Source: Bacteroidota bacterium (GTDB lineage: Bacteria; Bacteroidota; Ignavibacteria; UBA10030). Taken from it: a stretch of 64,000 nucleotides of DNA. Under the pieces are notes generated by a model. That model searched no databases and was not told the origin of the DNA. It saw only the letters and a list, made by a program, of their open reading frames with translations. Made by a program: the position numbers and the translations under genes. Below are positions 19,585 to 43,620 of the stretch, in pieces; position 1 is the stretch's first letter; each line of letters opens with the position of its first letter. The stretch spans positions 31,054 to 95,053 of the forward strand of contig JBBEEC010000029.1 in the NCBI GenBank assembly GCA_040880975.1, in the 5' to 3' direction.

Positions 19585-21225
<1,641 letters not shown>

Positions 21226-22660
21226 GGCATCAAATTCGAAATTCGAATTTCGAAATTCGAATTTTACCTCACCGCTTCATCCAGGCAACTGGGTGGAGCG
21301 GTTTTTGTTTTTAGCACGCCACCTCTGGTCGGGAGCTCTGCTCCCCACTCATCCCCCCGCCACAAAACACGGCGGGCAAGCCCGCCAAAAATCGCGGCGG
21401 GCCCCGAAGGGGTCCCTTTGGGACAGGCCGTCCCCCTTCTCTCAAGAGAGAAGGGGGGGTGAGCACCACATCTGGTCGGGAGCTCTGTTCCCCACTCATC
21501 CCCCCGCCAAAAATCGCGGCGGGCCCCGAAGGGGTCCCTTTGGGACAGGCCAACCCGGGGGTGAGCACCAACTCTGGCCGGCTCTACTCCTCCTCGTTTC
21601 CATAGGCCAAAAAAAAACAAGGCATGTCATTCTGCCCGCCCCCGCCAGACCGCAGGCGGGCTGGCCGGCTGAAGTTTATTGAAGGCGGGCCGGGGAGTCC
21701 CGCCTTCCACAGCATTTCCAGGCGGGCGGGACGAAGAATCTGAACACCTCCGCTTAACAAAAGCTCGTATCGGCATAAAAGCTCGCTCATTATTCGTTGT
21801 CGGATTTTCTCACCCAACTCTGGTCGGGAGCTCTGCTCTCCACTCATCCCCCCCCGCCAAAAAACGGCGGGGCAGGCCTTCGGGAAAATTTCGGCCTCTT
21901 TCATCGCCCCGGGATACCTGTCCGCCTTTGGCGGAAATCCCGGGGCTAGATGACCTCATGTAGAGCACAATTCCCCTCCCCGATAAAAAGCATCGGGGCA
22001 GGAAAGGGGAATCCAAACCGTAAAACAGAAAACGACAAAGAACAAACTGAAATCAAACAGAGAGAAGAAAACACAAATAAACAGGGGGGGGTGGGATTTC
22101 TGAATAACAATTCCTTCACTGCGCGTGCCGTTTACTCGCCCCTAGCCCCCGAAATTTTGGCGGTGTGCGGTTGGTGACCTTTGGTGCGTTTAAGTCCCGG
22201 CACCGCCTTTTGCTTGAGTTTGCACCTCTCGCCGTGTGCCGGGACTTCGGCTAATCTCCGTTTTATCCTTGGCGGGGGGATATTATTTTGCGGTGTGTTT
22301 CCCCCTAATGGATATTCCATGGAGGGGTCCCTTCGGGAAAATTTCGGAAGAAAGTTCCCCCGCATCAATTCAAAATAGTGATTAAAGAGCGGGGTCCCGC
22401 TTCGCGGGATCTTTGCTACTTTTCCCGCTCTTTGGATCCCGTCATGAGCGGGATCCTGGAAGGCGGGACTCTTTTGAAGAGAAAGTAGGCCTGCGGCAGC
22501 AAAGAGTCGAGATTAATCCAACAGATCGGGCTTATTCCCTCTTGAACATCCTCATCCAAAGTAATTCGCCGAAAGCCCAGAGCCGATCAATGACGCCGGT
22601 ACTTCGTTACTCCACGAGTTAGGCGTCATTTGAGCCTGCGGGGGATAGAATAATGGGGAG
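21226..22660. repeat. ~1.4-kb non-coding repeat mosaic: AATTCGAA tandem repeats, ~100-145-bp tandem duplications (ctctggtcgggagctctgctccccactcatccccccgccaaaaa...), GTCCCTTTGGGAC-type hairpins, an A-rich ~190-bp element and a ~70-bp palindromic element (ctacttttcccgctctttggatcccg...cgggactcttttgaagagaaagtag)
   Basis: The same units recur at 23400-24200, 39560-40200 and 41990-42330. ORFs in this region are translations of the repeats. Confidence 0.8.
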
Positions 22661-22669
22661 TGTGTTACC

Positions 22670-22978
22670 CTACGAAAGCATCTGAGCAAGGTGTTTTCTT
22701 GAAGCGCCCAATGCCAGCAACGACCGAATTAGCAAATCAAGCGACACTGATGGATCGCCAGCTTCCATCTTTGCCACACGAGATTGGCTTGACTTCAATC
22801 GTCGGGCAAGTTCGTGTTGGGTCAGGTTCTTCTTTCGTCGCACCGCTTGGAGATTCTTGCTTAATGCCAACTTCAGTTCAATATAAGCAGCTTCTTCCTC
22901 TGAGAGATTCAGAAACTCCTGAACAGTTCCAAATTTCCAACCTTTGGCTTCAAGCCGACGGCGTTTTGCAGATTTCAT
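22670..22978 (-). CDS. higA: XRE-family HTH antitoxin (HigA-like)
   Basis: Contains the HTH NLTQHELARRLKSSQSRVAKMEAG. It lies 13 bp downstream of the toxin gene on the same strand. Confidence 0.7.
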   Translation of the reverse strand: MKSAKRRRLEAKGWKFGTVQEFLNLSEEEAAYIELKLALSKNLQAVRRKKNLTQHELARRLKSSQSRVAKMEAGDPSVSLDLLIRSLLALGASRKHLAQMLS

Positions 22979-22990
22979 ATTCTTGCTCCT

Positions 22991-23323
22991 TTACGTTGTA
23001 TCGTACATACGCAGACGCTGTTGACAGTTTCGAACTACTTCCTTCGGCGTCTTTTGAGTTTTCTTTTCAAAGATATCCACCACAAGGACTGCATTGTTAT
23101 CGATCCGATATACGATACGCCAGGTTGTCGTTTCATCCACAATCCGAAGTTCGTGGCAACGCTTACCAATCACTGGCATTGGACGTGACTGTGGTAACGA
23201 AAGCTTCTCCCCCATTTGCACCCGACGAAGCAGATAACCAGCTTCAATTCGTGCTTGGCGCGAGAACGGCGGTGTTTTTATTTCACCGTGGAGCCAACCA
23301 ATCTGCTTTGTCGATCTGTCCAT
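22991..23323 (-). CDS. higB: RelE/ParE-superfamily toxin, HigB/phage Gp49-like
   Basis: 110 aa. The motifs ...GKRCHELRIVDETTTWRIVYRIDNNAVLVVDIFEKKTQKTP fit the Gp49-like killer-protein family, which pairs with XRE antitoxins. Confidence 0.65.
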   Translation of the reverse strand: MDRSTKQIGWLHGEIKTPPFSRQARIEAGYLLRRVQMGEKLSLPQSRPMPVIGKRCHELRIVDETTTWRIVYRIDNNAVLVVDIFEKKTQKTPKEVVRNCQQRLRMYDTT

Positions 23324-23399
23324 GCGAGTATAAGATATGTCATTTCTGATATATAGTCAACACGGCGCAAACGAACGTCTAACACGCCCAATCCCGAAG

Positions 23400-24270
23400 G
23401 GATCCCTTCGGGACAACGACGCTCCCTCATTTTATAGGCGATGATGAAAATGATTGCTAGTGCCACTTCTTCTCTCCCGAGAGAAGGGGGGGTGAGCGCC
23501 ACATCTGGTCGGGAGCTCTGCGGTGGAACCTACGCCCACAAAGACATAGCGAAGGGGTCCCTTTGGGACAAGCCAACCCCTTCTCTCCCGAGAGAAGTGG
23601 GGGGTGAGCGGCACCACTGGTCGGATCTCATGTAGCGCGTGCCGTTTACTCGCCCCTAGCCCCCGAAATTTCGTCCTCTTTCATCGCCCCGGAATGAATT
23701 CCGGGGCTAGATTACCTCACGTAGAGCACAATTCCCCTAAAGGGGAATGGGCTTTCTGTCGACGGGACTTACTGCAGTGTGCTTTACCCATGCCCTTAGC
23801 CCCCGAAATCGCCGGCTGTGTGCGGTGGGCGGCTTAATCGTGCGTTTAATTCCGGCACCGTCCAATGGTCGAGTTTGTGATCTCGCCGTGTGCCGGAATT
23901 TCGGCCTATCTCCGTACTATCTAAGGTGCGGTGGGGATGGTTTGACAACGTGCGTTGCGATTTCGGCGCCCTTTTCTTTTCGTCCATTTTCTTTTGGGCG
24001 GGCAAAAGAAAATGGACTCGCCGAAGGCCCAGAGCCGATCAATGACTCTCCCTTGCATCTTTGCCTTCCCCAAGCTACCTTTCCCCAGCCAGCGGTAACC
24101 CAACGGGGACCAATTCCACATCACGTGAACATTTTCAGGGGCGTGGAATGGTCTTTTGAAGGGTGAGAACGGGAGGAACGCGGCAGAATGAACCTCTGGA
24201 TTCGGGTTTCCGATGAAGGAGGTTTTTGTGTTATGGAGTAGTTGAGTAGTGGAGTATGTGAGTATTTGAG
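23400..24270. repeat. repeat mosaic sharing units with 21226-22660 and 39560-40200, including palindrome ccattttcttttgggcgggcaaaagaaaatgg and GAGTAGT-like heptamers at 24230-24280
   Basis: There are several direct matches to other loci: gcgtgccgtttactcgcccctagcccccgaaatt, tagagcacaattcccctaaaggggaat and cccagagccgatcaatgac. Confidence 0.75.
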
Positions 24271-24306
24271 TAATTGTTGGCTTGGCCTTTCCTAATTGGA
24301 GGCAAA

Positions 24307-24618
24307 ATGGACACATCAACGTGGTTTTTATTGGCAGTCATGTCATTCTCTTGTGGATTCTTCACAACGCACGTTGCCAAGCTCAAAGGGTATGAACCAA
24401 TCGGTTGGTTTTTTGCGGGCTTTTTCTTTTGGATAATAGGCTTGATTGCTGTTATTGGGGTGCCCGAAAAACAAAGGGTTGTGCTCTCGAAGAAAGATGA
24501 AGAATGGATTTGTATGATCTGTAATTATGGAAGACGTGGCCGGGGCCTCTGTGGGATCTGCGGCAATGAACCAAAGTTTATTACTTTACCAAAACCGAGT
24601 CACTCTGCGGCCAGGTGA
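24307..24618 (+). CDS. small membrane protein with C-terminal zinc-ribbon (CxxC...CxxC)
   Basis: An SD-like GGAGG precedes the ATG at 24307. There are two hydrophobic helices, then CMICNYGRRGRGLCGICG. Confidence 0.45.
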   Translation: MDTSTWFLLAVMSFSCGFFTTHVAKLKGYEPIGWFFAGFFFWIIGLIAVIGVPEKQRVVLSKKDEEWICMICNYGRRGRGLCGICGNEPKFITLPKPSHSAAR

Positions 24619-24801
24619 CCGGCCGCTAAGCCGACGAAACCATTCACTATCTTCAGAATCTGGCCATCACCGCTTAAACAAGGCCCGCATAGGCATGAAA
24701 GCTTGAAAAACTTGGCAAAGGTCACCGGCGGCGATTCAAAAGCGGGGTTCTTCGTAATTCGAAGATTGTGCGCCGCCACCGGCTTAGAATGAGATAAGTA
24801 A

Positions 24802-25437
24802 ATGACCCAACCGACACCTCCGACAGAGTCCCAACCAAGCGAGCGGCAGAAAAAGAGATATGAGGTTTCGCTCGATACGCGGAAGTTTGAGATCGATCTG
24901 TTTTGGAGGCGTGCTCTCTTCTTCTGGGGGTTCATTGCCTCTGCCTTCGTAGCTTATGCAGCGTTTTCGAAGGATAGACCCGACGGTCCAACGATTTCTC
25001 TGATAATTTCTCTGTTTGGTCTGGTGTGCTCATTCAGTTGGACTCTTGTAAATCGTGGATCCAAATACTGGCAAGAGAACTGGGAATCGCAAGTTGACAA
25101 AGATGAAGATGCCGTCACAGGCCCGCTATTCAAACAACCCGCCGAACGTCAAAAGAAAGGTTGGTTTGGTGCTCAGAAGTTTTCAGTGAGCAAGCTTGCA
25201 ATTGCCTTAAGCGACTATGTTACGCTCGTTTGGGCTCTACTAATACTCCGCAGTGTGAGAGAAATACCCACAGTCAAGCGATTCTTGGAGGCGGACTGTT
25301 GGCCGTTTCATCTTCAAGACGATACCCTTGTTCTTGTCTTTCTTGTGTTCACGCTCGCTTGGTTGATATTTGTATTTATAAAGAGTGGAACAACAGAACG
25401 AACGCCGGGCGCTGGCGGCGCATCAACAACAGTCTAA
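24802..25437 (+). CDS. hypothetical multi-TM protein (possible SLATT-like 2TM effector; unverified)
   Basis: 211 aa. TM helices ALFFWGFIASAFVAYAAF and TISLIISLFGLVCSFSWTLV are followed by KYWQENWE and a C-terminal helix LVLVFLVFTLAWLIFVFI. Confidence 0.5.
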   Translation: MTQPTPPTESQPSERQKKRYEVSLDTRKFEIDLFWRRALFFWGFIASAFVAYAAFSKDRPDGPTISLIISLFGLVCSFSWTLVNRGSKYWQENWESQVDKDEDAVTGPLFKQPAERQKKGWFGAQKFSVSKLAIALSDYVTLVWALLILRSVREIPTVKRFLEADCWPFHLQDDTLVLVFLVFTLAWLIFVFIKSGTTERTPGAGGASTTV

Positions 25438-25448
25438 CCGAGGAGCCT

Positions 25449-26087
25449 TTGCCCGATACACTTTATCAGGAATTTGAGGATCCGACGGAGGCTTTTGCGC
25501 GCGAGCCCCGTGCCTTTTGCTACGATCTTGCCATAGGTCTCATCAATCAAGCTAAAGCGGAAGCAACCCTATCATGGTACACTCAGACAGAGAGCGTCAA
25601 GGCAATTATCCTGCTCCTCTATTGTTGGAATTTTGCAGCACGCGAAACGAAGAGACTCACATTTGATTCCGTTCGAAATGTACTCAGCACAAATGAACAG
25701 AATCTGCGATTATTGGAGCAGTACACACTACTAACGTTCGATGAGACATCTGAACTACCAATCCAAACCGTTTTCTCCCAATTCCGTGAGGCATTTGGAC
25801 AAACTGGAGCGACTAAAGCCTTGAGCTTGCTCAATCCCAGACTTTTTCTAATGTGGGATACGCGCATACGAGCCAGACTCCGAAGGGAACTTGTCCGCGG
25901 GCTCGACAACGGGCAAACCGAAGACCAATACATTCTGTTCTTGCGCAAAGTGCGCGATTATGCTGCTCAATATAATTTCCAGCAGAGGCTCGCACCCAAT
26001 GCAATCCTAGCGAAGAAAATCGATGAGTATCACTATGTCAGGATTGTGATGGCGCAAAGTGTTTTACACGTGCGGGATACCGCCTAA
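25449..26087 (+). CDS. hypothetical protein (start uncertain; TTG 12 nt after previous stop)
   Basis: The long ORF 25161-26087 overlaps the upstream gene. The first plausible start after its stop is TTG 25449. No recognisable motifs. Confidence 0.35.
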   Translation: MPDTLYQEFEDPTEAFAREPRAFCYDLAIGLINQAKAEATLSWYTQTESVKAIILLLYCWNFAARETKRLTFDSVRNVLSTNEQNLRLLEQYTLLTFDETSELPIQTVFSQFREAFGQTGATKALSLLNPRLFLMWDTRIRARLRRELVRGLDNGQTEDQYILFLRKVRDYAAQYNFQQRLAPNAILAKKIDEYHYVRIVMAQSVLHVRDTA

Positions 26088-26170
26088 CAGGCCGCACAAC
26101 GACGTGTGCTCACTTGAAATTGCAAAAATTAAGCTGTGTTAGGAATAACAATGGGAAGCGACGTTCTTGA

Positions 26171-26926
26171 TTGCCGAAAAGATCTATGAATTCAGATTGG
26201 CGTAGTCTATTGCCAAAAGAACTCGGCCCACTGCCATTCGACGGTGTGCTCACCAGAACGGAAGCCAACGGGTCAATTGATGCTCCCGTTACAGTGCTCG
26301 GAGTTTATCCCGCAGCAGTGCAGTGGCGTCATTTTGTTCGTGATGGAGTCAGGTTGAATTTGCCATCGAAAGTCGAAGAGCACTCTTTCGACCCCCTGTC
26401 CAAGTCAGGAAGCGACCTGGACAAACTCTACTTGCAACCTTTAGGTCTTTCTCGCGGGCATATTCTAGCGGTAGATTTAATGCCGTACTTCTTCGCGAAC
26501 ACTGCGAAGGATTCAAAGAGTCACCGCTCGATGTGGGATAATGTGCGGGACTATACCCGAATTACAGGTCGGAAAACTGCGATCGAACCAAGACCGCCAG
26601 AGGATAAACTCCTGCAAAGGTGTTGGTCGTTACCAGGCAATCAATCCCGTCTTCAAGAATATATTGCGCGAAAATCAGCTCGACTTCTTTTCACGCTTGG
26701 CAGAGAAGCAGCTGCATATGTTCGAGGACATAACCGTGCGATTGATGGACAACAGTATCTTTATTCCAAACCCAAAACGCTCGACCTTTTCGACAACTCT
26801 ATTCTCACCGTTCATTTTGTTCATCCAGGGAATCTTCAACGTTCCAATAACGGGAAGTGGAAAACAACCCACATCGATTGGTGCATAGAATCAGGCCGCG
26901 GATTTGTCAAGTCAGTTTTAGGATGA
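26171..26926 (+). CDS. hypothetical protein with uracil-DNA-glycosylase-superfamily-like motifs
   Basis: VTVLGVYPAA resembles UDG motif A (beta-strand + GxxPx, as in GQDPY/GEAPG). ILTVHFVHPGNL resembles motif B (HPSP) near the C-terminus. The ~190-aa spacing fits a UDG fold. Confidence 0.4.
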   Translation: MPKRSMNSDWRSLLPKELGPLPFDGVLTRTEANGSIDAPVTVLGVYPAAVQWRHFVRDGVRLNLPSKVEEHSFDPLSKSGSDLDKLYLQPLGLSRGHILAVDLMPYFFANTAKDSKSHRSMWDNVRDYTRITGRKTAIEPRPPEDKLLQRCWSLPGNQSRLQEYIARKSARLLFTLGREAAAYVRGHNRAIDGQQYLYSKPKTLDLFDNSILTVHFVHPGNLQRSNNGKWKTTHIDWCIESGRGFVKSVLG

Positions 26927-27078
26927 CGAACCCCCCGACACACGTACGCGAGCTGCGCCGACCGGTGTAAAAAAGGCAGACGACAGGCTCTTGTTGGTTC
27001 GCACCGCAATACGCCCGACGTTTGGTACCATGCCCCGCGAGAACTTGTCTTGCTGAACCGACTGGACGGAGAGTGCAA

Positions 27079-27687
27079 ATGATATCACCGACTCCTCAGA
27101 ATATTCCAAATGAAACCACCGTGCAGGATCTATCAAACCACTACCTGCTATCGTCGCTGCACAGTAGGTCGGCGTGGATATATTGCCCGACTCGACAAGA
27201 GGAGATCCGACTAGGTTATGACGCCTCACTCCAAAACGGGAAGACCGTCCTGCTTCAATACAAATCGCTTAGCTATGCGGGACGATATCTCGTTTCAATT
27301 CGTCTTGACCAGAGACAATTAGCGACTCTGCTTACCAATTTTCCCCAACGGACCACTCCGTATCTCTATTATGGGTTTTGCGACTACCGGTCTTATCGAG
27401 AATTAGACAACGATTTTCTGACAGTGGGCTCTCCAGAATTCTTTAGGCACATGTTGTTCATTGACATCCATTCTCTCGCACCGAATACGCATACTATCCG
27501 TCGTCACAACGATGGAAGCATGACCGGCTTCCCGAGCCAGCAGCAGTTGATTCCAGTGCGAGGACCGAGGATTGCTCAGGGAATCAGAACTTGCACGATT
27601 GGTACGCCAAATAGCAAGAATATGCTTCGGACCCTTCGAGACCGTATTCGAGGATTCACATTGTCAGTGTTGCGTTATGTCCCCTAG
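27079..27687 (+). CDS. hypothetical protein
   Basis: Internal Met (MISPTPQNIP) of the 221-aa ORF. No recognisable motifs. It is co-directional with neighbours. Confidence 0.4.
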   Translation: MISPTPQNIPNETTVQDLSNHYLLSSLHSRSAWIYCPTRQEEIRLGYDASLQNGKTVLLQYKSLSYAGRYLVSIRLDQRQLATLLTNFPQRTTPYLYYGFCDYRSYRELDNDFLTVGSPEFFRHMLFIDIHSLAPNTHTIRRHNDGSMTGFPSQQQLIPVRGPRIAQGIRTCTIGTPNSKNMLRTLRDRIRGFTLSVLRYVP

Positions 27688-30900: not shown

Positions 30901-31289
30901 GTTTGAAACAAAAAGGCGACACCGATGGCACCGAAGAAGTGAATCCTCTCCAGCCCTACTTCCTTGTCTACATTTGGGATGACGGACAAGTCAGGTTCAA
31001 CTACACCAATGCCAAGCAAATATTGGAGATCTATCGTCTGATGTGCCAGGGGCGAACCGAAGCCTTCCAAGGTCTGTGTGATCTCTTCAATGAAGAAACA
31101 CAACACGGAAAGAATATGTCGGCCTATACCGAGCGCCTGCAGAAAGCAGTGGAGGAGATCGTGCGTGTATTCAAGAAGAAGATGACACAGCGGATTACCA
31201 CAGACCGCGGTGGATTGATCATGCCGAAGTCAAAACAGGTGGATGAAGTCAACAATTTCGAGCTTGTCTCATGGTTGATTATTCGCTGA
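27957..31289 (+). CDS. PLD-family (HKD) nuclease fused to SNF2-family helicase (DISARM DrmD-like with DrmC-like PLD N-terminus)
   Basis: A single HKD motif is present: NFLHGKLYHLENPNGTKESIMGSSNFTVSGLG. SF2/SNF2 motifs I (ADSVGLGKTFEALAV), II (LVVIDESHNFRG), III (LLLSATPVNN) and V/VI (YDIHWNPVRIIQRFGRVDRIG) are also present. Length is 1110 aa. Confidence 0.8.
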   Translation: MSALRDNYAKGTVGEFLKEVIRPGSKLSFVSAYFTIYAYQQLKSQLDGIDHLRFLFGEPRFINSIDPSKTNRREFRIDDDQLVIPIENRMSQKATAKECAEWISKKVAIKSMVKPNFLHGKLYHLENPNGTKESIMGSSNFTVSGLGLGGRHNIELNMVIQDRRDANELEEWFNGLWNNQDGLVEDVKEQVLKYLDQFYVENEPEFIYYKTLYHIFEKFLGEQDKGGLLNKQIGFFESEIWSMLYDFQQDGVKGAINKILKHNGCIIADSVGLGKTFEALAVIRYFELLNCRVLVLVPKKLSSNWTVYQAAQNNILNPFRKDRFNYTVLYHTDLGRVQGVSDANGIDLERFNWGAYDLVVIDESHNFRGNPTERTTDDGEIRLNRAKWLMEKIIKEGTKTKVLLLSATPVNNNLRDLRNQLLLITEGRKDALFEATQIKDIELALKNAQTQFTNWADAKKNPVRTVKQLLERLDSSFFKLLDEMTIARSRRHVKSFYNIKAVGRFADRLKPHAIYPSIDVKDRFFTYDALNKKILEYKLSVFNPSAYVKPEMQKKYEDLGAGQVLAFTQSDRENFLIGMMKVNYLKRLESSIESFEISLDRTIRKIEDLEKRIAEFKKAKPNGQQVDIGAAQPEEDEFEENADDLEQWQVGKKFKVDMADLLLDDWLRDLNADKQALSVLYNGAVAVTPDRDAKLKELKDQIEKKIEHPLNGINDKVIVFTAFADTADYLYGCLKDWTRNDLKKHIALVAGSFTKTTLGRNDFGNILTNFSPISKDRARLSEMPQGDEISILIATDCISEGQNLQDCDYVINYDIHWNPVRIIQRFGRVDRIGTRNEKIQLVNFWPTKDLDNYINLKERVEARMALVDVTATGEDNILNTDQLEELIEEDLKYRNQQLKRLRDEVLDLEDMNESVTLTDFTLDDFRVELTNYIESNRKRLEEAPFGLYAVVPSPSGEHSNVLDVTAFSAAERAIIKPGVVYCLKQKGDTDGTEEVNPLQPYFLVYIWDDGQVRFNYTNAKQILEIYRLMCQGRTEAFQGLCDLFNEETQHGKNMSAYTERLQKAVEEIVRVFKKKMTQRITTDRGGLIMPKSKQVDEVNNFELVSWLIIR

Positions 31290-31296
31290 ATCAAGA

Positions 31297-35325: not shown

Positions 35326-37160
35326 GAATAAAGCAGATCGAAATCAAAGACTTCAAAGCATTTGCTGGTGAATACCCTTCTATCAAGCTTGATGGAAAGA
35401 GTTTGCTGGTATATGGCGAGAACGGGAGCGGCAAATCATCACTTGCACAAGCGCTGGACCAATTTGTAGAAACATCGACTGGAATGTTGAAGTTTGGCGA
35501 CTTCAAGAACATCTTTGCGCATGCTAATGATGGGTTCGTAAAGCTGACTTGCGAAGGCTTCGACGCTGCGGGAAATCCCGATCCAGAGAATGGCATCTAT
35601 GAGTGGTCAGAAACCTCTGATATGGTTGGCCAGGATCTCTTTGTTGACGCCTCCAAGACAAAGGGATTTCTTGACTACAAACGTTCACTCGCTGTCTATT
35701 TGCATCCAAAAGACGCGAATAGGATCGATGTTTTCGACCTCTTGATGCGGAACTTGCTTTCGCGATTTGTGAATCCGGTGAGCCGCTCAACCTTTGGAGA
35801 TGAACTTGGGGTGATGGAGCAACGCGTAAGGGCCTACTGGTATCAAGGCAACCTGAACGTCCTCAAAAGGCATTTGAGAGATTTTAATGCTGGTTTATCA
35901 GCAGTTCTTAAGGAATTGAACACCAAGGCTTCCGACATTCTCACAGAATTCGAAACAGGTGTCACCATCAGATTGGCACCTGCAAGGCTTTCTTATGGGC
36001 GGCCGCCGAAACGCTTGAAGAGGTCGCACATCGGGCTGTTTGTCCAGTACTACGGAAGAAAAATTCATCAACCTCATCTGTTTCTGAACGAAGCCAGATT
36101 ATCGGCTGTTGCCATTTCCATTTTCCTTGGTTCAATGCTGATTCAGCCATCAAGCAAGATCAAACTTCTTATCCTGGATGACATGCTCATCGGGTTGGAT
36201 TTTTCCAACCGAATGCCGTTGTTGAATGTGTTGAAAAAGCACTTCAATGACTACCAAGTGTTTATGTTGACATTTGACAGAAATTGGTTTGAGATCGCAA
36301 AGGCACTTCTGGCAAATGGCTGGGGAGCTTGTGAGATGTACGTGAGCGAACACAAGGAAGGCCCAGTCGGCGCCGAGGTAGTCATCGGTAACAAGCCTCA
36401 AATCGTCCAACCTTCAGACAGCTATCTTGACAAGGCGAAAAAGTACTTTGAAGCATTCGATTATCCAGCTGCGGCAAACTACCTTAGGAAGCGATGTGAA
36501 GAGTTGATCGACGATCTGCTTCCACTCTCCTACAAGATCGAACCGACCAACGGCTTTGGATCGAGGGAAATAACAAAACTGGATGGATTGATTGACAGAT
36601 TAAAGATGCTCTTCGAGGACTGTGAGGAATCAGCACCTCGTGCAGTTGAAAGCTTATTAAGGCTTCTCAAGAAGGCTACACTAAATCCGATGTCGCACCA
36701 CGATCTCGAGAGTCCAATCTACAGGGTTGAAGTTGAGCAGCTCTTTGATCTTGTGGACGAACTTGCCAACTTACCGAGATTGAAAAGACAGATTTGCCTC
36801 AAGGCCGGAAGCAGAGCTGCATATCATTTCACGGATGCCACGCGCGAATACAGCATCGATATAGAGCTAGTTGCAGACCTGCTTGTGATCACTGTGAACG
36901 GCAATAGTCGGTTTAACAAAGCGAAGTGGAAGATAGCAACGTGGGCGCTGAATGGGGTTGAGTTCTCTAGCATGGATCTCGCAAACCATCAGAGGCTAGG
37001 ACCTGATATCATCGAGAAAACGTGCGCCCAAGAGAGGCATCTCGAAGGAATAGCGAATGGTGTGTTTGGACCGCGTGGACTTGCCGTCACCCCACCGCGG
37101 GATGTCTTGGCGGAATTCAAAGTGACGAATGGTGGTACGTTGAGGGACTTGTTAGAGTAA
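35322..37160 (+). CDS. ABC/SMC-like (AAA_15/AAA_21-type) ATPase
   Basis: The N-terminus IEIKDFKAFAGEYPSIKLDGKSLLVYGENGSGKSSLAQAL carries Walker A, and KIKLLILDDMLIGLDFSN carries Walker B plus D-loop. The start ATGA overlaps the methyltransferase stop. Confidence 0.7.
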   Translation: MRIKQIEIKDFKAFAGEYPSIKLDGKSLLVYGENGSGKSSLAQALDQFVETSTGMLKFGDFKNIFAHANDGFVKLTCEGFDAAGNPDPENGIYEWSETSDMVGQDLFVDASKTKGFLDYKRSLAVYLHPKDANRIDVFDLLMRNLLSRFVNPVSRSTFGDELGVMEQRVRAYWYQGNLNVLKRHLRDFNAGLSAVLKELNTKASDILTEFETGVTIRLAPARLSYGRPPKRLKRSHIGLFVQYYGRKIHQPHLFLNEARLSAVAISIFLGSMLIQPSSKIKLLILDDMLIGLDFSNRMPLLNVLKKHFNDYQVFMLTFDRNWFEIAKALLANGWGACEMYVSEHKEGPVGAEVVIGNKPQIVQPSDSYLDKAKKYFEAFDYPAAANYLRKRCEELIDDLLPLSYKIEPTNGFGSREITKLDGLIDRLKMLFEDCEESAPRAVESLLRLLKKATLNPMSHHDLESPIYRVEVEQLFDLVDELANLPRLKRQICLKAGSRAAYHFTDATREYSIDIELVADLLVITVNGNSRFNKAKWKIATWALNGVEFSSMDLANHQRLGPDIIEKTCAQERHLEGIANGVFGPRGLAVTPPRDVLAEFKVTNGGTLRDLLE

Positions 37161-37374: not shown

Positions 37375-38658
37375 ATGACAGACAACAAAAAGACGTTCAT
37401 CCACGCCGACGACGAAACGCTGATCATGCTAATCGGCAATGCGCGTCAGCGTTTGGTCTTCATTGCGCCGGGAGTGAGAAAAACGGTAGCTCAAGCCCTT
37501 GCGTCCTCGATGGATGTTGTTCCTGTGGAAGCTATCCACCTGGTCGTTGATGCCGATCCCGAGGTTTGCCGACTCGGGTACGGTAGCTTGAACGGCCTGG
37601 AGCTTCTGCAATTCGCGGCTGGCCAGCACAACCTCGTGTTGAACAATCACCCTGGTATTCGCATAGGCCTTCTCATTGCAGATGAAGCTACACTCATTTA
37701 TAGTCCCACACCGTTGCTTATAGAGGGAGGCTCGCAAACACCGAACAAGCCCAACGCGGTTATATTGGACGCCCAGTTGCCTCAGGCGCTTGCGGATGCT
37801 TGTGCTGCAGGAGAGCGACAGGGTGCGAAATTGGAGGTTGGAAGGGATGTGGTTGACGCTGGGAAACTGGACGCGGTCAAACGGGATTTGCTTGAAAGAC
37901 CTCCCAAAAAGTTCAATGTTGCTCGGGTGGAGCGCGTATTCAATTCCATGTTGCACTACGTCGAGCTGCGGATTGAGGACTACAAACTCACCAGTCGGTC
38001 GCTCGCGCTCGATGCAAAGCTCTTCGGAGTGACGAATCCCGAGGTTGTGCGGCGGTTGCGGAATCGATACACCCTGTTTGCCGATACTGAATCCCTCAAT
38101 GTTGAGATCGAATCGCTCGATGCCGACGGGAAAGCCAATCCGAAAAAGACGAAAGAGAAGTTTGGCCCGCGCAGTATAGACGAGGAGCGTCAACGGATCA
38201 AAAAAAGGTTCATCCTGGAGGCTGGGGATTATGGATTGATCATCCTGCGCAAGGATGTAGAAGAGTTTGAGAAGCAGATCAATGCGCTGAGATCAAAGAT
38301 TGAAGCCTACAAGAAGGCGGTTCAGACGGAGATTGCGCGCCGAACGGATGAGATCGTTATTGAGCTACTCGCAGCTCTAAAGGACGCTCTGAAAGCCAAT
38401 CCACCAGAGCATTGGCGTTCCCGCTACATGGGTGAGACGCCGGCTGACGCCGATATCGAGCGATTGTTTCAAGAGGAGATACGAGCCGAAGTGAAGCGGG
38501 TCAACACAGATTTCAATCCACGCGTGTTTCATGCGTTCAAGGACGTGACATACAAGACATTCAAGGATGAGAAGTTCCGCAAACTTCTAGAAGTCCGGTT
38601 TGGCAAGGACGCCATTGATCGTATATTTTCCGAGCATGATGCAGCACCGGAAGAATAG
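37375..38658 (+). CDS. hypothetical protein, possible Toprim-like N-terminus (speculative), coiled-coil middle
   Basis: 427 aa. The N-terminus FIHADDETLIMLIG...AIHLVVDADPEVCRLGYG is a candidate Toprim E...DxD pattern. No other motifs are recognised. Confidence 0.4.
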   Translation: MTDNKKTFIHADDETLIMLIGNARQRLVFIAPGVRKTVAQALASSMDVVPVEAIHLVVDADPEVCRLGYGSLNGLELLQFAAGQHNLVLNNHPGIRIGLLIADEATLIYSPTPLLIEGGSQTPNKPNAVILDAQLPQALADACAAGERQGAKLEVGRDVVDAGKLDAVKRDLLERPPKKFNVARVERVFNSMLHYVELRIEDYKLTSRSLALDAKLFGVTNPEVVRRLRNRYTLFADTESLNVEIESLDADGKANPKKTKEKFGPRSIDEERQRIKKRFILEAGDYGLIILRKDVEEFEKQINALRSKIEAYKKAVQTEIARRTDEIVIELLAALKDALKANPPEHWRSRYMGETPADADIERLFQEEIRAEVKRVNTDFNPRVFHAFKDVTYKTFKDEKFRKLLEVRFGKDAIDRIFSEHDAAPEE

Positions 38659-38847: not shown

Positions 38848-39246
38848 ATGCCCCAAGCGGAGATTTCCGGAATATCACCTTTTTTTATCGTGAGCAACGT
38901 GCCGTCGTCGCTTTCGTTCTACCGGGACCGGCTTGGATTTGAAGTCACCTTCCAGGGGCCTTCTCCGGACGATATCTTCTTCGGAATTGTCCGCAGGGGC
39001 GGTGCACAGATCCTGCTCAAAGACGTTGGCGTAGCTCCTCTTCCGAACTATAAGCGAGACGTCGGAAAAGGGTTCGCCCGGTGGGACGCATTCGTTGTCG
39101 TCCCGGATCCTGATGCACTTGCGGCCGAATTTGCCTCGCGCAATGTGGAGTTTTCCGAACCGCTGAATGACACCGAAGACGGCCTGCGTGGTTTCGAGGT
39201 CAAGGACCCCGATGGCTATGTCTTGTTCTTCGGCCGTCCCCGATAA
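38848..39246 (+). CDS. VOC-family glyoxalase/bleomycin-resistance-like protein
   Basis: 132 aa with a glyoxalase-like fold signature. Its 3' half and downstream sequence are duplicated at 41439-41700, and a remnant lies at 40219-40285. Confidence 0.65.
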   Translation: MPQAEISGISPFFIVSNVPSSLSFYRDRLGFEVTFQGPSPDDIFFGIVRRGGAQILLKDVGVAPLPNYKRDVGKGFARWDAFVVVPDPDALAAEFASRNVEFSEPLNDTEDGLRGFEVKDPDGYVLFFGRPR

Positions 39247-39249
39247 ATC

Positions 39250-40700
39250 CGTTCCTACCAGGAAATAGAACACGCCTGCGTGCCGAAACAGTTATTGAAT
39301 CTGGAAGAGTACCAAATCACTCCGGCGTGCCCGCCTGAACGACGTAGTCGGGCAGGCCTCCGGCACGCAGGCAGGGATTGACGCGGATATATCATACGAT
39401 TCCGGCGATTTACCTGTGCACTCCGTGATCCTCCTGTAGTTTGCCTTCTACGCGCCCTGAGCCCCCGTCCCAAAGGGGAGGGGCGAAAATACGAAATCAC
39501 AATATCGAAATACAAAACAATATTAAAATACTAAATCTCAAACATCTCGGTTTTGAGGATTAGACATTAGAATTTGTTTCGCCCGCCCCTTTCTTGCTTG
39601 ACAAGGGCCAGGGAATTTCGTGTTTATGATTTCGGATTTTAATCGCACGGTGGGTGACAGATGGTCTGTTCCCCCTAATGGATATTCCATGGAGGGGTCC
39701 CTTCGGGAAAAATTTCGGCCCCTTTCATCGCCCCGGGATAAATCCCGGGGCTAGATCACCTCACGTAGAGCACAATTCCCCTAAAGGGGAATCCAAACCG
39801 TAAAACAGAAAACGACAAAGAACAAACTGAAATCAAACAGAAAGAAGAAAACAGAAATTAACAGCGGAGGGGGGTGGGATTTCTGAACAACAATTCCTTC
39901 ACTGCGCGTGCCATTTACTCGCCCTGAGCTCCCGAAATTTCGGCGGTGCGGTGAGGTCTTCCCCTGCAGTGCGTTAAATTCCGGCACAGTTTGAACAACT
40001 CTTTCGGTACGGAGACTGTTTAAGTGCCGGAATTTCGGATCAATTAAGCCTTATCCCAGGTGTGCGGTGGGTGACAAATGGTGTGTTAAATTTCGGCGCC
40101 CTTTTCTTTTCGTCCATTTTCTTTTGGGCGAACAAAAGAAAATGGACTCGCCGAAGGCAACTAGCCGAACAAAGGTCCAATCACCAGACTCCCCCTCATC
40201 CAACAACCCCTTTCGAAGGGTCTGCGTGGCTTCGAGGTCAAGGACGCCGACGGCTATGTCTTGTTCTTCGGCCGTCCAAGGTGATGAGCGTCGAGCCAAA
40301 TGGCGTCGAGGACCGCGACTTCTGACTTCTGACCTCCGACGTGTCCCTATTCGGTCGCCCCTACGGGGCTATATCCAGTTATCGTTATACTCTGCTACCA
40401 GAAGGCCGTCCCTAAAGGGACTGTTGTCTGACACACTGACCTCCGAACTCTGACTCGGCCGCTCCTATCCCGAAGGGATCCCTTTGGGACGGAGCTTCCT
40501 GTGTTTGTGTTAGATTCTTTTCTACCAATAGATCGCCCCGCCCGACCGAACAATGCGATAGCTCAAACGGTCGTTCGGGCGGGCCCTACGGGGCTTTTCG
40601 GATTTCCGACCTCTGACCCTTCGCTTCGCTCAGGGCATGCTTCCGACCTCGGACTTCCGACCTCGGACTTCCGACTTCCGACCTCCGATGTGTCCCATAT
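39250..40700. repeat. repeat mosaic (A-rich 190-bp element copy 39750-39960, GACTTCC/GACCTCC heptamer tracts, REP-like hairpins) incl. ~110-nt element with 12-bp terminal stem at 39262-39372
   Basis: Shares long identical stretches with 21930-22170, 23640-23760 and 42350-42530. Confidence 0.75.
40219..40285 (+). pseudogene. remnant of glyoxalase gene 3' end (GLRGFEVKDADGYVLFFGRP*)
   Basis: Near-identical to 39183-39246. Confidence 0.5.
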
Positions 40701-40711
40701 CGAGGATATCA

Positions 40712-41017
40712 TTATGGCGGATCGACCGGCGGACTCTCCGGTTCAAAATCCATAAGCCGCTTGTTTATTTTCTTTGCCGTTTTCTTGTTGGAACAATAGA
40801 ACTGATCCCGACTCATTCCACATTGACGGATCATGCTCGCCATCAGATCAGCCCAGAATTCATCCACCCCCATGTCAACTGTTACAATTCGCCTCTTTCC
40901 GCCAAAATATCCCTCATAATTCTCATGGCTACCCTCATGACTTTTATAGGCAAAACCCCGGGCTTTGAGGATGGCAATTACTTCTTGCGGCGAGAGAGGC
41001 GGGTATTTCTTAGGCAA
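40712..41017 (-). CDS. hicA: HicA-family mRNA interferase toxin
   Basis: The N-terminus MPKKYPPLSPQEVIAILKARGFAYKSHEGSHENY is typical of HicA/YcfA. The gene is adjacent to hicB. Confidence 0.7.
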   Translation of the reverse strand: MPKKYPPLSPQEVIAILKARGFAYKSHEGSHENYEGYFGGKRRIVTVDMGVDEFWADLMASMIRQCGMSRDQFYCSNKKTAKKINKRLMDFEPESPPVDPP

Positions 41018-41327
41018 GATTCAATCGGCGGGATGTGGGGTCGTAATCACCGGAAAAGGTGATCGTATCCCAAGCCCGTGTCATGAATCCGAGAAGCATG
41101 ATAACATTCCACCGCGCACGATGAATCAACGGTGCCTTCCGAATGAACTCTCCCCTCATGATTTCATCGACATCAAATGACTTGAGGTAGACTAAGAGTG
41201 CATCTCTCATCTTGCGCTCAACTTCCGCTAATGAATGCCCCTGTACTGCAATATCTGTTTCAAGGCAAATGGCGAAGAACCCATCTCCACTCTTGCGCCC
41301 TACAATCCTTAAATGGATTGACTGCAT
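41010..41327 (-). CDS. hicB: HicB-family antitoxin (UPF0150)
   Basis: 105 aa with an RNase-H-like HicB N-domain pattern (...FFAICLETDIAVQGHSLAEVERKMRDAL...). It overlaps hicA by 8 nt. Confidence 0.65.
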   Translation of the reverse strand: MQSIHLRIVGRKSGDGFFAICLETDIAVQGHSLAEVERKMRDALLVYLKSFDVDEIMRGEFIRKAPLIHRARWNVIMLLGFMTRAWDTITFSGDYDPTSRRLNLA

Positions 41328-41381
41328 GGGTGACTACTCCTTTAACTTTGGATTCCGGGGAAAATTCCCCCTAAACTGAGT

Positions 41382-41669
41382 GTGTCAAGCATGTTGATCA
41401 CAACGAAGATAAACCTAAAATCGCTGCAAGTCAAGCCACGCAAAGACGTTGGCGTAGCTCCGCTTCCGAACTATAAGCGAGACGTCGGAAAAGGGTTCGC
41501 CCGGTGGGACGCATTCGTTGTCGTCCCGGATCCTGATGCGCTTGCGGCCGAATTTGCCTCGCGCAACGTGGAGTTTTCCGAACCGCTGAAAGACTCCGAA
41601 GACGGCCTGCGCGGTTTCGAGGTGAAGGACACCGATGGCTATGTCTTGTTCTTCGGCCGTCCCCGATAA
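41382..41669 (+). pseudogene. 5'-truncated duplicate of the glyoxalase gene (homology begins at KDVGVAPLPNYKRD)
   Basis: 76 C-terminal residues are ~96% identical to 38848-39246. The 19-aa N-terminus is unrelated. Confidence 0.6.
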
Positions 41670-41699
41670 ATCCGTTCCTGCCAGGAAATAGAACACGGA

Positions 41700-42790
41700 A
41701 AAAGCGGATTAGACGGATTGTTACGGATAACGAATCCTCCAATTCGAGGCAAGGGGAATGGGGAACAAATCCGAAATCACAAATTCCAAATACGAAACAA
41801 TATCTAAGAATAAAATTCTAACGTATGCAATTCCTGTGCCCTAGCCCCGAAATTGTGGCTGTGCGGGGAGGAATTCAATAGCAGTGCGTTAAATTCCGGC
41901 GCAGATTCATCCATGATTGAGAATTGATTCAACGTCGGGCGCCGGAATTTCGGAATGTTTAAGCTCAAACACTGTTGTGCTGAGGGTAACATAAGGTGCG
42001 TTTCAATTTCGGAAGAATGTTCTCTTTGCTACTTTTCCCGCTCTTTGGATCCCGCCATGAGCGGGATCCTGGGAGGCGGGACTCTTTTGAAGAGAAAGTA
42101 GACTAGCGCTAGCAAATGGTCGAGATTAATCCAACAGATCGGGCTTATTCCCTCTTGAACATCCTCATCCAAAGTGCCTCGCCGTAGGCCCAGAGCCGAT
42201 CAATGACTCACCCAGTCTTCCCCTCATCCCCCCGCCAAAAATCGTGTCGGGCAGGCCAACCCCTTTCGAAGAGAAGTAGACCAACGTTCGCAGATGGCTG
42301 AGAATTCACAATGGTCGCAGTCTTATCGACGGGATTTGCAGACCTTACTGCCAGGAAATAGAACACGCCTGCGTGCCGAAACAGTTATTGAATCTGGAAG
42401 ATTACCAAATCACTCCGGCGTGCAGGCACGGAAAAATCGGATTAGACGCCTGCCTGCCGGAGTGCCCGCCTGAACGACGTAGTCGGGCAGGCCTCCGGCA
42501 CGCAGGCAGGGATTGACGCGGATATATCATGAGAATACTCCGACCTCTGACTCGGTCGCCCCTACGGGGCTACGACGGATCGGTTTGTGTTATTCTTTCT
42601 ACCAACAGACCGCCCCTACGGGGCTCAATCCGTGAATCCTTCTTTCTTCTTACTGATTTCTGCCTACCTCCTAAAATGCTTCCCCATCTGACTTCTGACC
42701 TTCCGCCTGCGCCCTACGGGCTTCGGCGGACAGGCCGACCTCTGACCTTGCGCTCGACCTGAATTTAGTCTATATTATGGTCGACCCAAA
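41700..42790. repeat. repeat mosaic incl. copies of the 70-bp palindromic element (42018-42090), ccagagccgatcaatgac unit, the ~110-nt stem element (42350-42530) and GACCTCT heptamer/ccctacgggg hairpin units
   Basis: Direct matches to 22418-22595 and 39259-39420. Confidence 0.75.
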
Positions 42791-42802
42791 CCAGGAGGAC
42801 CC

Positions 42803-43093
42803 GTGAAACTCAGCACTGCCGTGAAACCCATCAGCTATCTTAAAGCTCATGCCTCCCGTATCATCCGTGAGCTTTCCGGCCGCCAGGGGACCCTCATTGT
42901 CACACACAACGGTCAGGCCAAGGCCGTCCTTCAGGATATCCATACCTTTGAACAAACACAGGAAACGTTGGCGTTGCTGAAGATCCTGACACGAAGCCAG
43001 CGGAATGTCCAACGCGGCAAGGTGAAATCCCTCGATACCGCTTTTGCATCGCTCGAACGACGCATCCGGGGCTTCAAGAATGAAAAAACATGA
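42803..43093 (+). CDS. phd: Phd/YefM-family antitoxin
   Basis: ISYLKAHASRIIRELSGRQGTLIVTHNGQAKAVLQDIHTFEQTQETLALLKIL is a typical Phd/YefM fold sequence. Confidence 0.72.
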   Translation: MKLSTAVKPISYLKAHASRIIRELSGRQGTLIVTHNGQAKAVLQDIHTFEQTQETLALLKILTRSQRNVQRGKVKSLDTAFASLERRIRGFKNEKT

Positions 43094-43406
43094 CGTCCAA
43101 CTCGATGTTGATGCCGAAGAGGACCTCTTTGAAATCTACCGGTACGTTGCCCTGAACGATTCCATCCAACAGGCAGATCGTTTGTTCGAGGCTCTCAAAC
43201 GGGCTTGTTCCTCGCTCCGCACTCTGCCTCGCCGGGGCCACCTCCCCCCAGAGTTGCAGGATATCGGCGTGTCGCAGTTCAGAGAAATCCGTTTCAAGCC
43301 CTACAGGATCTTCTATAGCATCGACCGTGCGACCGTCACAGTCCATTGCGTGTTGGATGGTCGACGGGATATGCAGACCCTACTGCAAGAACGCTTGTTG
43401 CGCTAA
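43080..43406 (+). CDS. parE: ParE/RelE-family toxin
   Basis: The internal Met (MKKHDVQLDVDAEEDLFEIYRYVA...) overlaps the phd stop. The C-terminal RIFYSIDRATVTVHCVLDGRRD is ParE-like. Confidence 0.68.
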   Translation: MKKHDVQLDVDAEEDLFEIYRYVALNDSIQQADRLFEALKRACSSLRTLPRRGHLPPELQDIGVSQFREIRFKPYRIFYSIDRATVTVHCVLDGRRDMQTLLQERLLR

Positions 43407-43620
43407 TTCAGACGATCAGGCATCAAATAAACTCCTTTTAATCCCCGCCACATAGCGCGGCGGGCAGGCGTTCCTTTTCCGTTTTATCTGATTTTTCCGT
43501 GTCCCATATCGGAGGATATCAAGCAAAAGGTCAATTAGAAGGTGTTTTGCTGCACAACTATTCACCCTGGACAGTGGTCTAATCTGGATACCCAACAACA
43601 AAACCATCCGTGAGGTATCC

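Follow-up and report, generated by a model that had tools for sequence, protein, structure and literature searches.

What occupies the interval between groEL and dnaG in a bacterium whose relatives keep these two genes side by side, what does it encode, and how did it come to be there? To address these questions, we analyzed a 64,000-nt stretch of DNA (the window; all coordinates are window positions) from an uncultured Ignavibacteriota/Bacteroidota bacterium, a metagenome-assembled contig that bears the locus tags WEF53_* and is annotated as 'Bacteroidota bacterium'. A first-pass annotation, made from the sequence of the window, had described positions 21226–43620 as an AT-richer accessory and defence island lying between groEL and a block composed of an S41 peptidase gene and dnaG. 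Comparison with related genomes revealed that the island is real but of an ordinary kind among defence islands, its novelty lying in its components and in its integrase-free, repeat-rich architecture. The extra DNA occupies 21312–45520, and we consider it likely that this segment is a lineage-specific accessory and defence island, accrued probably stepwise in the short spacer that separates the terminator of groEL from the promoter of dnaG.

Relatives were retrieved by a DnaG search of species-representative genomes and Joint Genome Institute (JGI) metagenomes, each with 10 kb of context, and the retrieved loci or contigs of other assemblies are labeled here with L-numbers. The nearest genomes to the window are Ignavibacteriota/'Bacteroidetes' metagenome-assembled genomes (MAGs), and fragments of the window recur on short contigs assembled from run SRR27977658. 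In five relatives, groES-groEL is followed directly by dnaG, with a spacer of 58–580 bp and with collinear genes on both sides. These are L060 (groEL 98.7% identical in amino acids, dnaG 82%), L061 (94.5% and 75%), L003, which is the same as L062 (94.5% and 67%), L016 (94.3% and 67%), and L067 (88% and 56%). The region is thus variable, as had been proposed; none of the five carries the same content at this position. The blastn alignment of L060 to the window, in which the groEL DNA is 87% identical, pairs L060 5820–7967 with 19159–21311 and L060 8026–9878 with 45521–47383; because it stops at 21311 and resumes at 45521, the window holds 24,209 extra bp where L060 has 58 bp. The genes on either side have ordinary core functions, in agreement with the first-pass annotation: an HtrA-type protease, adenylosuccinate lyase, aldehyde dehydrogenase, class-III aminotransferase, NAD synthase, TP_methylase-family methyltransferase, and groES/groEL upstream, and dnaG, a geranylgeranyl-reductase-like gene, a heptosyltransferase, DUF3108, and others downstream. 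The features that define the borders are the following.

21271–21311, plus strand: intrinsic terminator of groEL, with a 14-bp stem and a T-run; left border of the insertion and top match of the terminator scan in the region
43621–45300, plus strand: S41-like peptidase with C-terminal TPR (Pfam Peptidase_S41, 2e-7, plus TPR; GC content at third codon positions [GC3], 0.689)
45301–45520, no strand: right end of the insertion, which stops at 45520; non-coding, containing a tandem repeat of 24 nt and a partial copy of the dnaG promoter region
45521–45566, plus strand: right flank, with the conserved promoter-like motif TCCTTGATTGTCC of dnaG and its start codon (ATG at 45564)

Both the terminator and the promoter-like motif are conserved in L003, L016, L060, and L061. 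The motif at 45521, 43 nt ahead of the dnaG ATG, marks the right border of the insertion, and since this border is the dnaG promoter, the S41/TPR peptidase gene lies inside the insertion and not in the flank to which it had been assigned; no homologue of this peptidase was found in the fetched loci of any relative. The longest dnaG open reading frame (ORF) begins with TTG at 45528, and conservation with four relatives sets the real start at ATG 45564 (MRIPD...). The right junction is also present on the independent short contig L001, where parE, the S41 gene, and dnaG are contiguous with 100% identity in both spacers, and the stretch from the methyltransferase gene to the glyoxalase gene is present on a second independent short contig, L054. 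In two more distant relatives, the groEL-dnaG junction holds other cargo. It amounts to 3.7 kb in L005 (6380–10000), where, from ORF translations only, it comprises an S9-type peptidase-like gene, a 181-amino-acid gene, and a deaminase-like gene on the opposite strand; in L065 it is a different 1.4 kb (8600–10000). Since the closest relatives have no insert in this spacer and more distant ones carry other small cargo there, the spacer behaves like an insertion hotspot.

Analysis of the base composition confirmed that GC content drops inside the insertion. Calculated over 1-kb intervals, it is 0.486 ± 0.015 for 22–37 kb versus 0.544 ± 0.022 for the flanks (Mann–Whitney p = 6.7e-8), and 0.526 for 37–45.5 kb, slightly below the flanks; the tetranucleotide correlation with the flanks declines from at least 0.90 to 0.70–0.86 between 20 and 46 kb. 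The GC3 values agree with this drop, with 0.44–0.59 in the atypical genes versus 0.657 ± 0.039 in the syntenic core genes, and they fall into at least three classes. The genes from higA through the ORF at 27.0 kb have values of 0.44–0.50; the helicase, methyltransferase, and ATPase genes have 0.53–0.58, with 0.59 for the gene of a 427-amino-acid protein that follows them; and the glyoxalase, phd, parE, and S41 genes have native-like values of 0.61–0.69. The hicAB genes have 0.50–0.52. The designation 'AT-richer' therefore holds for approximately 22.6–38.7 kb and for hicAB and fails for glyoxalase, phd/parE, and S41. Because of these separate classes, the island was probably assembled in several steps rather than by one insertion. 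The picture of an inserted island holds insofar as the content is mostly defence and accessory genes; its heterogeneous composition suggests stepwise accretion in place of a single event.

No sign of self-mobility was found, as the first-pass annotation had reported. ARAGORN detected 0 tRNA or transfer-messenger RNA (tmRNA) genes, no Rfam family was matched, and no integrase, transposase, or recombinase domain was recognized by Pfam in any island ORF scanned. An insertion sequence (IS) or a miniature inverted-repeat transposable element (MITE) with long terminal inverted repeats was considered and rejected, the only such pair being a single 36-nt hairpin unit in two copies. A search of the island ends for att-like direct repeats yielded only one weak 11-mer, AGGCATCAAAT, which lies directly after the groEL stop codon (21225–21235) and again after the parE stop codon (43418–43428), each copy being followed by a hairpin. 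This pair may be an att-like remnant delimiting 21.2–43.4 kb, or it may be due to chance. At present, the island is passive DNA without mobility genes.

Approximately 5 kb of the island is non-coding and is built of short GC-rich hairpin units arranged in four mosaics, among which lie three toxin–antitoxin (TA) pairs (Gp49/HigB-like with HTH, HicA-like with a partner, and Phd with ParE) and a glyoxalase gene with its partial copies.

21312–22669, no strand: repeat mosaic A, non-coding; blocks common to 23.4–24.0, 39.7–39.95, and 42.0–42.26 kb
22670–22978, minus strand: HTH_3 (Xre-type) antitoxin, HigA-like (Pfam HTH_3, 3.3e-9, 37.1 bits, cut-off 23; GC3 0.447)
22991–23323, minus strand: Gp49/HigB-like RelE-fold toxin (Pfam Gp49, 5.4e-11, 42.8 bits, cut-off 23.9; GC3 0.459)
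23324–24273, no strand: repeat mosaic B; its 29-nt motif at 24018–24046 repeats 22566–22594 and 42178–42213
38848–39246, plus strand: glyoxalase/bleomycin-resistance family protein, intact copy (Pfam Glyoxalase, 1.3e-10; GC3 0.617)
39247–40711, no strand: repeat mosaic C, with a 64-nt piece of the glyoxalase 3' end at 40214–40277 and heptamer tandem repeats at 40640–40688
40712–41017, minus strand: HicA-like toxin, borderline (Pfam HicA_toxin, 8e-6, 26.3 bits versus a cut-off of 27)
41010–41327, minus strand: upstream partner of the HicA-like gene, presumed antitoxin (8-nt overlap; phrog_12841, 3e-7, as its only match; no Pfam match)
41382–41697, plus strand: partial glyoxalase duplicate (last 75 codons) with 28 nt of downstream sequence, seen in translation; 41441–41697 corresponds to 39018–39274
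41698–42802, no strand: repeat mosaic D, of which 41698–42350 is bracketed by a 23-nt direct repeat (41675–41697 and 42345–42367)
42803–43093, plus strand: Phd/YefM antitoxin (Pfam PhdYeFM, 6.3e-12, 45.5 bits, cut-off 29.8); the phd/parE pair is also on L001
43044–43406, plus strand: ParE toxin (Pfam ParE_toxin, 6.6e-18, 65.5 bits, cut-off 23)

The Gp49/HTH pair is a HigBA-like type II system, with both families above threshold and both genes on one strand with a 12-nt gap, and Phd/ParE is likewise a type II system, with both families above threshold and overlapping genes; according to the gene call on L001, the true ParE start is likely near 43080, giving 108 amino acids. The first-pass annotation had counted four TA pairs in the island. 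The fourth, BrnT/BrnA (49505–50070), lies outside it in a separate insertion of 1.36 kb, described below.

Comparison of the two ends of the island revealed that they share repeat units, with blocks common to 21.3–24.1 and 39.2–42.6 kb, as had been noted: 21877–22165 matches 39700–39948 at 79% identity (up to 293 bp), 22410–22594 matches 42023–42207 at 92% (185 bp), 23666–23748 matches 39710–39792 at 93%, and 23960–24042 matches 40090–40172 at 92%. Examples of the mosaic units are CCCGCC-N9-GGCGGG, GTCCCTTTGGGAC, CTTCTCTC-N4-GAGAGAAG, and GCCCCTACGGGGC, together with heptamer tandem repeats; further units are CCACATCTGGTCGGGAGCTCTG, GTCGCCCCTACGGGGC, and the 185-bp unit at 22410–22594. The DNA of 21300–21600 folds better than all of 100 shuffled versions (z = −3.3), with other stretches being less extreme. 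No hidden genes were recognized in the mosaics, as the 10 spacer ORFs that were scanned gave no Pfam match. Some of the units are not specific to the island. They occur outside it at 6839–6907, 8840–8957, and 18839–18918, and heptamer repeats are also found 3' of the groEL stop codon in relatives; at least some of the units are therefore a property of the intergenic DNA of this genome and not imported island ends. In the loci of relatives, the units were not found beyond the conserved heptamers downstream of groEL and short matches of approximately 30–50 nt. Tandem heptanucleotides (AGGTTCA, GACCTCC/GACTTCC, AAATTCG, and CGAACTT) are present in 8699–8973, 21232–21264, 40640–40688, and 47414–47521, and it is the AAATTCG-type run behind the groEL stop codon that is conserved in relatives. 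The mosaics resemble repetitive extragenic palindromic (REP) sequences and bacterial interspersed mosaic elements (BIMEs) in that short GC-rich hairpins are clustered in intergenic mosaics, with copies at several unrelated intergenic sites. They differ in their unusual length of 1–1.5 kb, and no REP-associated tyrosine transposase (RAYT)-type gene is present in the window. To our knowledge, the units are unrelated in sequence to REP/BIME.

The duplicated gene fragments that had been pointed out are likewise present. The last 229 nt of the glyoxalase gene and 28 nt of downstream sequence (39018–39274) recur at 41441–41697 with 96.5% identity, and a 64-nt piece of the same 3' end recurs at 40214–40277, so that direct copies of a gene 3' end lie on both sides of hicAB. 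A comparable arrangement is found beyond dnaG, where the second insertion relative to L060 occupies 49050–50411 (1362 bp; L060 has 24 bp) and carries BrnT/BrnA, with genes at 49505–49774 and 49771–50070. It is bracketed by a direct repeat of 244 bp and 97% identity (49005–49247 and 50169–50412) that takes in the final 45 nt of the geranylgeranyl-reductase-like gene upstream and of which a 67-nt piece is also found, inverted, at 6839–6907. That two independent TA cassettes are flanked by duplicated 3' ends suggests recombination via short homologies, for example, the insertion of a circle by a single crossover. It is plausible that the shared repeat units mediate recombination, as the first-pass annotation had envisaged.

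The proposed functional core of the island corresponds to the restriction–modification (R-M)-like operon of the first-pass annotation. It consists of three genes in tandem, encoding an HKD-SNF2 protein, an N6-adenine methyltransferase (MTase), and an ABC ATPase.

27957–31289, plus strand: HKD (phospholipase D [PLD]) nuclease fused to an SNF2 helicase, 1110 amino acids, putative restriction effector (Pfam PLDc_2, SNF2-rel_dom, Helicase_C)
31297–35325, plus strand: gamma-class N6-adenine DNA MTase of 1342 amino acids with a TaqI_C target-recognition domain (TRD) (Pfam Eco57I, 1.9e-37; TaqI_C, 5e-11)
35322–37160, plus strand: Rad50/SMC-like ABC ATPase of 612 amino acids (Pfam SMC_N, 7e-15); its start overlaps the MTase stop codon (ATGA)

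The HKD-SNF2 protein matches the PADLOC 'HKD+Snf2' model over its full length (5e-131), and its motifs are intact (H119-x-K...GSSN, GLGKT, and DESH). The MTase gene starts 7 nt downstream of the helicase gene, and its product contains the DPACGSG and NPPY motifs; among solved structures, CamA, BseCI, and TaqI come closest to it, and BrxX is far more distant. The N-terminal extension of the MTase, approximately 580 amino acids, gives only a weak match to DUF4391, and the matches of orthologues are likewise weak or faint. The ATPase carries Walker A and B motifs and also matches AAA_15, its matches in the PDB are Rad50/SMC heads, and its family comprises 3442 matches at E ≤ 1e-3. A plasmid search with the ATPase returned only a remnant in a Nostoc plasmid.

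The three genes are found in the same order in Desulfonema magnum CP061800 (helicase 60%, MTase 41%, and ATPase 34% identical), in a Mesotoga MAG (62%, 52%, and 39%), and in a 2.7-Mb contig of the European Nucleotide Archive (ENA; 55%, 34%, and 37%), and the ATPase gene follows the MTase gene in all four homologous loci sampled. The helicase orthologues in L055–L057 are 55–62% identical. The gene that follows the ATPase encodes the 427-amino-acid protein in the window, another AAA ATPase in L055, and a TIR protein in L056, and in L057 it is replaced by unannotated ORFs and then Mrr; Mrr is found nearby in two of the triad loci. As the fourth gene varies each time, the triad is the conserved unit. 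The genes in the left part of the island were considered as further parts of it and rejected, because none adjoins the triad in L055–L057 or the UDG-like homologues described below. A distant version of the triad, at 26% identity, is present in L048 (GCA_031402435.1, JANNSJ010000070.1), in a segment that also carries a 79%-identical gene for the 427-amino-acid protein, a D5_N/DUF5906 primase, and a large serine recombinase. The triad can therefore ride on an integrative element. To judge from its domains and motifs, the triad is a conserved ATP-dependent restriction-like system.

To place the triad among named systems, we compared it with those that combine similar activities. The closest by description is MANTIS (Gao_RL/BREX-related type 2), in which the HKD-SF2 helicase-nuclease MtsD restricts, the N6-MTase MtsC hemimethylates, and the DUF499 AAA+ ATPase MtsA, together with MtsB, a small protein with DUF3780, loads the MTase and activates it (bioRxiv 10.64898/2026.09.23.753747; PMC12839542). 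As in MANTIS, the putative effector of the triad is an SF2/SNF2 helicase-like ATPase that carries an HKD nuclease at its N-terminus, the N6-adenine MTase is large and contains a recognition domain of its own, and the operon encodes a second ATPase, the likeness to MtsD and MtsC being one of description only. The gene order helicase-MTase-ATPase sets the triad apart, and its ATPase is of the Rad50/SMC-type ABC class and not a DUF499 AAA+ protein of the ORC/Cdc6 clade. DUF499 was found in none of the ORFs scanned, and DUF3780 had no Pfam match among the island ORFs. Because the ATPase is ABC-type and both DUF499 and DUF3780 are missing, membership in MANTIS was rejected. By analogy with MANTIS only, the N6-adenine MTase with its TaqI_C domain would mark host DNA, the HKD-SNF2 helicase-nuclease would translocate on and cut unmarked DNA, and the translationally coupled Rad50/SMC-like ATPase would act as a loader or regulator, the role that the DUF499 AAA+ ATPase has in MANTIS.

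The other systems compared match the triad less completely. DISARM class 1 has in common with it an SNF2 helicase (weak DrmD), a long Eco57I-type MTase (weak DrmMI), and a PLD nuclease domain as in DrmC, which in the window is fused to the helicase; DrmA and DrmB (DUF1998) are not in the island, the NCBIfam model for DrmD gives 145.8, far below its cut-off of 610, and DISARM was rejected. BREX was rejected as neither PglZ nor BrxC is present and the PglX models score 77–80 bits against cut-offs of 400–500. Hma, which PADLOC defines by a helicase, an m5C MTase, and a DUF499 ATPase, was rejected since the window MTase is of the N6-adenine type (NPPY) and the ATPase is ABC-type; the HmaA match (8e-22) is partial. 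The PADLOC Type IIG models match residues approximately 460–1270 of the MTase only, that is, the MTase and TRD, and no nuclease domain was found in its N-terminal 580 amino acids. In combining a PLD nuclease with a helicase motor and keeping the MTase separate, the triad resembles SauUSI and Type I/III-like R-M systems. SauUSI, however, is a Type IV enzyme that works alone and cleaves modified DNA, whereas the window helicase has no recognized target-recognition domain and is linked to two further proteins, the MTase and the ABC ATPase.

Downstream of the triad lies one further gene that is tied to R-M loci.

37375–38658, plus strand: 427-amino-acid protein; Nuc-like PLD fold in the N-terminal part, C-terminal half long and helical; R-M-associated accessory gene

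The protein belongs to no Pfam, NCBIfam, or PADLOC family. It has 540 homologues, of which the best 120 are 55–79% identical, including one from a source annotated as Verrucomicrobiota, and at E ≤ 1e-3 its family contains 995 representatives of 50%-identity clusters, nearly all of full length. In the Type I locus of L050, the homologue has hsdS on one side and, on the other, a Fic/RhuM-domain gene that is followed by hsdR; in L052, it lies between ResIII/SLFN-AlbA genes and an N6_N4 MTase gene of a Type III-like locus; and in L048, the closest homologue (79%) adjoins an Mrr-domain gene. The protein is best described as the product of an independent accessory gene tied to R-M loci, and because such genes lie inside or beside Type I, Type III-like, and Mrr loci in unrelated bacteria, it is a candidate 'embedded' defence gene. 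Its conserved motif is H-x-G-x-R...D and not HxK...D; with this non-canonical motif, a nuclease activity is uncertain.

Upstream of the triad, the island encodes a divergent protein of the uracil-DNA glycosylase (UDG) superfamily.

26171–26926, plus strand: divergent UDG-superfamily protein of a rare family, assigned by AlphaFold2 (AF2) modeling and Foldseek

The sequence match that had led to the label 'UDG-like' is below threshold (Pfam, 18.7 bits against a cut-off of 24.3), and the label is upheld at the level of the fold. The AF2 model, built from seven family members, has a pLDDT of 91.2, and Foldseek aligned it with UdgX and family-4 UDGs (E 8e-8; TM 0.53–0.65), so the modeled product carries a UDG fold. 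The family has 7 homologues in 5.8e9 clustered proteins, all metagenomic, and the neighbors of these homologues are unannotated and unrelated to those in the window. Its motifs are divergent, with G-x-Y-P-A (GVYPAA), H-P-G, and a motif A without the usual acidic residue. Brig1-type antiviral DNA glycosylases were reportedly described by Hossain et al. in 2024. Like Brig1, to which it is likened by description, the protein places a UDG-superfamily fold in a defence context, and it might act as a glycosylase against modified phage DNA; its family is tiny, with 7 members found.

Taken as a whole, the island resembles the defence islands of known hotspots: it is missing in syntenic relatives, flanked by core genes, atypical in composition, and rich in clustered R-M-like, TA, and defence-type genes, and different cargo is found at the same junction in related genomes. 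It differs from them in having no integrase, tRNA, or transposase, in its hairpin-repeat mosaics, and in the native composition of its S41, glyoxalase, and phd/parE genes. We propose that it may have grown step by step at a permissive site, the spacer that follows a strong terminator and precedes the next promoter. Homologous exchange, either in the conserved flanks or at repeats, may have brought in pieces, and small cassettes were possibly added and shuffled by recombination among hairpin repeats and duplicated gene 3' ends. The 427-amino-acid PLD-fold protein, which travels with R-M loci of any type, the UDG-fold protein, 8xMP, and the three type II TA pairs would be add-ons around the triad. 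Several points weigh against this account. Composition is the sole basis of the stepwise history, no donor or intermediate state was seen, and the GC3 of short genes is noisy. The right-hand genes (glyoxalase, phd/parE, and S41) look native and could be relocated residents rather than acquisitions. The left junction and the order of the segments between repeats are seen in the MAG contig only, as L001 and L054 cover other parts. The defence role of the triad, the 427-amino-acid protein, and the UDG-fold protein is putative, and PADLOC contains no system model for any of them, its helicase model (C3a139) tracing only to a survey of CRISPR type III neighbors.

The main rival explanation, which we regard as improbable, is that a single integrative element (a genomic island, a remnant of an integrative and conjugative element [ICE], or a satellite) was placed once downstream of groEL by a site-specific recombinase, lost the recombinase, and decayed. 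The L048 segment, in which the closest homologue of the 427-amino-acid protein and a distant triad accompany a D5_N primase and a large serine recombinase, speaks for such an origin, and the 11-nt AGGCATCAAAT copies could be the remnant of its att sites. No recombinase gene or fragment, however, was detected in the scanned ORFs, one donor would hardly produce at least three compositional classes, and the S41 gene is left unexplained; the 11-mer is short, with approximately 0.25 matches expected between the compared regions, although its placement at junctions is less likely by chance. Less probable still is an assembly artefact, in which a chimeric MAG contig was joined via repeats that recur in it, the true place of all or part of the island being elsewhere than beside groEL. 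The concern applies to the left junction. Units of 185–293 bp and 79–98% identity lie at both island ends, short-read contigs break at or near repeats (the start of L001 is 90 nt upstream of phd, and L054 breaks off within the glyoxalase gene, approximately 95 nt before the duplicated part), and no exact match to the groEL protein is recorded for the other assembly. Yet L001 spans parE, S41, and dnaG without a mismatch in either spacer, so that an insertion upstream of dnaG exists regardless; moreover, groEL retains an intact terminator, behind which repeat units of the island kind begin, and dnaG keeps its conserved promoter right at the border. It is very unlikely that the segment was present ancestrally and that the relatives lost it: nothing specific supports this, although deletions between repeats are easy in principle. 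Five relatives with groEL identities of 88–98.7% all show adjacency with the same terminator and promoter elements, repeated precise deletions would be needed, and the atypical composition of 22.6–38.7 kb also speaks against it. The least credible explanation, to which we give almost no weight, is an integron-like cassette array (cluster of attC sites lacking an integron integrase, CALIN) with the repeats as attC sites. Small, promoterless-looking cassettes (TA and glyoxalase) are indeed separated by hairpin-forming repeats, and TA and glyoxalase genes are common integron cargo. The attC signature R''(RYYYAAC)...R'(GTTRRRY) with a paired inner stem, however, occurs 0 times in the island and once in the whole window versus 0.8 times in shuffled sequences, there is no intI, and the cassettes lie on both strands.

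Stepwise accretion in the groEL-dnaG spacer thus remains our preferred reading. A more far-reaching proposition, which we put forward only tentatively and would not ourselves expect to hold in full, is that the triad represents a distinct, uncharacterized family of ATP-dependent, methylation-based defences, in which a Rad50/SMC-like ABC ATPase is the loader or regulator where MANTIS/BR uses a DUF499 AAA+ ATPase and a variable fourth slot takes accessory effectors, and that TA cassettes move as circles via duplicated gene 3' ends and hairpin repeats. Excision and re-insertion of such circles would explain an island without an integrase. A widespread, unnamed triad that joins a MANTIS-like HKD-SNF2 effector and MTase to an ABC ATPase would extend a rule now emerging, namely, that defences based on methylation require an accessory ATPase. 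The locus itself provides a base-resolved, integrase-free defence hotspot in a poorly studied phylum, lying between two near-universal genes and with empty-site relatives for comparison. It also draws attention to a PLD-fold family of approximately 1000 clusters at 50% identity, found in or near Type I, Type III-like, and R-M-like loci and outside Pfam, NCBIfam, and PADLOC, and to a very rare UDG-fold protein in a defence context; current concepts are unchanged by the findings on the island.

The remaining genes of the island are small and lie between mosaic B and the triad.

24274–24618, plus strand: small protein of 114 amino acids, read by eye as transmembrane segments plus a Cys-rich zinc-ribbon-like tail (phrog_8436, 6e-6, as its only match; GC3 0.470)
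24802–25437, plus strand: 8xMP family membrane protein (Pfam PF24838, 4.6e-34; no PADLOC match; GC3 0.476)
25440–26087, plus strand: protein of approximately 200 amino acids with an uncertain start, the ORF as listed overlapping 8xMP (no Pfam, PHROGs, or PDB match; GC3 0.495)
27022–27687, plus strand: ORF of 221 amino acids, doubtful gene (no homologue or family match)

The 8xMP match substantiates the membrane proteins that had been noted in the island; a literature search for 8xMP/PF24838 and DUF4391 returned nothing relevant. The 221-amino-acid ORF may not be a gene and was probably not called in the NCBI annotation, because the locus tags from WEF53_04000 (the UDG-like gene) to WEF53_04020 (the gene of the 427-amino-acid protein) leave no tag for it. 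Outside the island, approximately 1.4 kb (17871–19270) separates the TP_methylase-family (rsmI-like) gene from groES, where L003 and L016 have approximately 230 bp. This stretch holds a 213-amino-acid ORF (17926–18567, minus strand) with a type IX secretion system (T9SS) C-terminal sorting domain (Por_Secre_tail, 1.8e-7) and approximately 700 bp of non-coding DNA with a repeat unit common to 40348–40427. In L060, the same site is filled by a different 2.3 kb.

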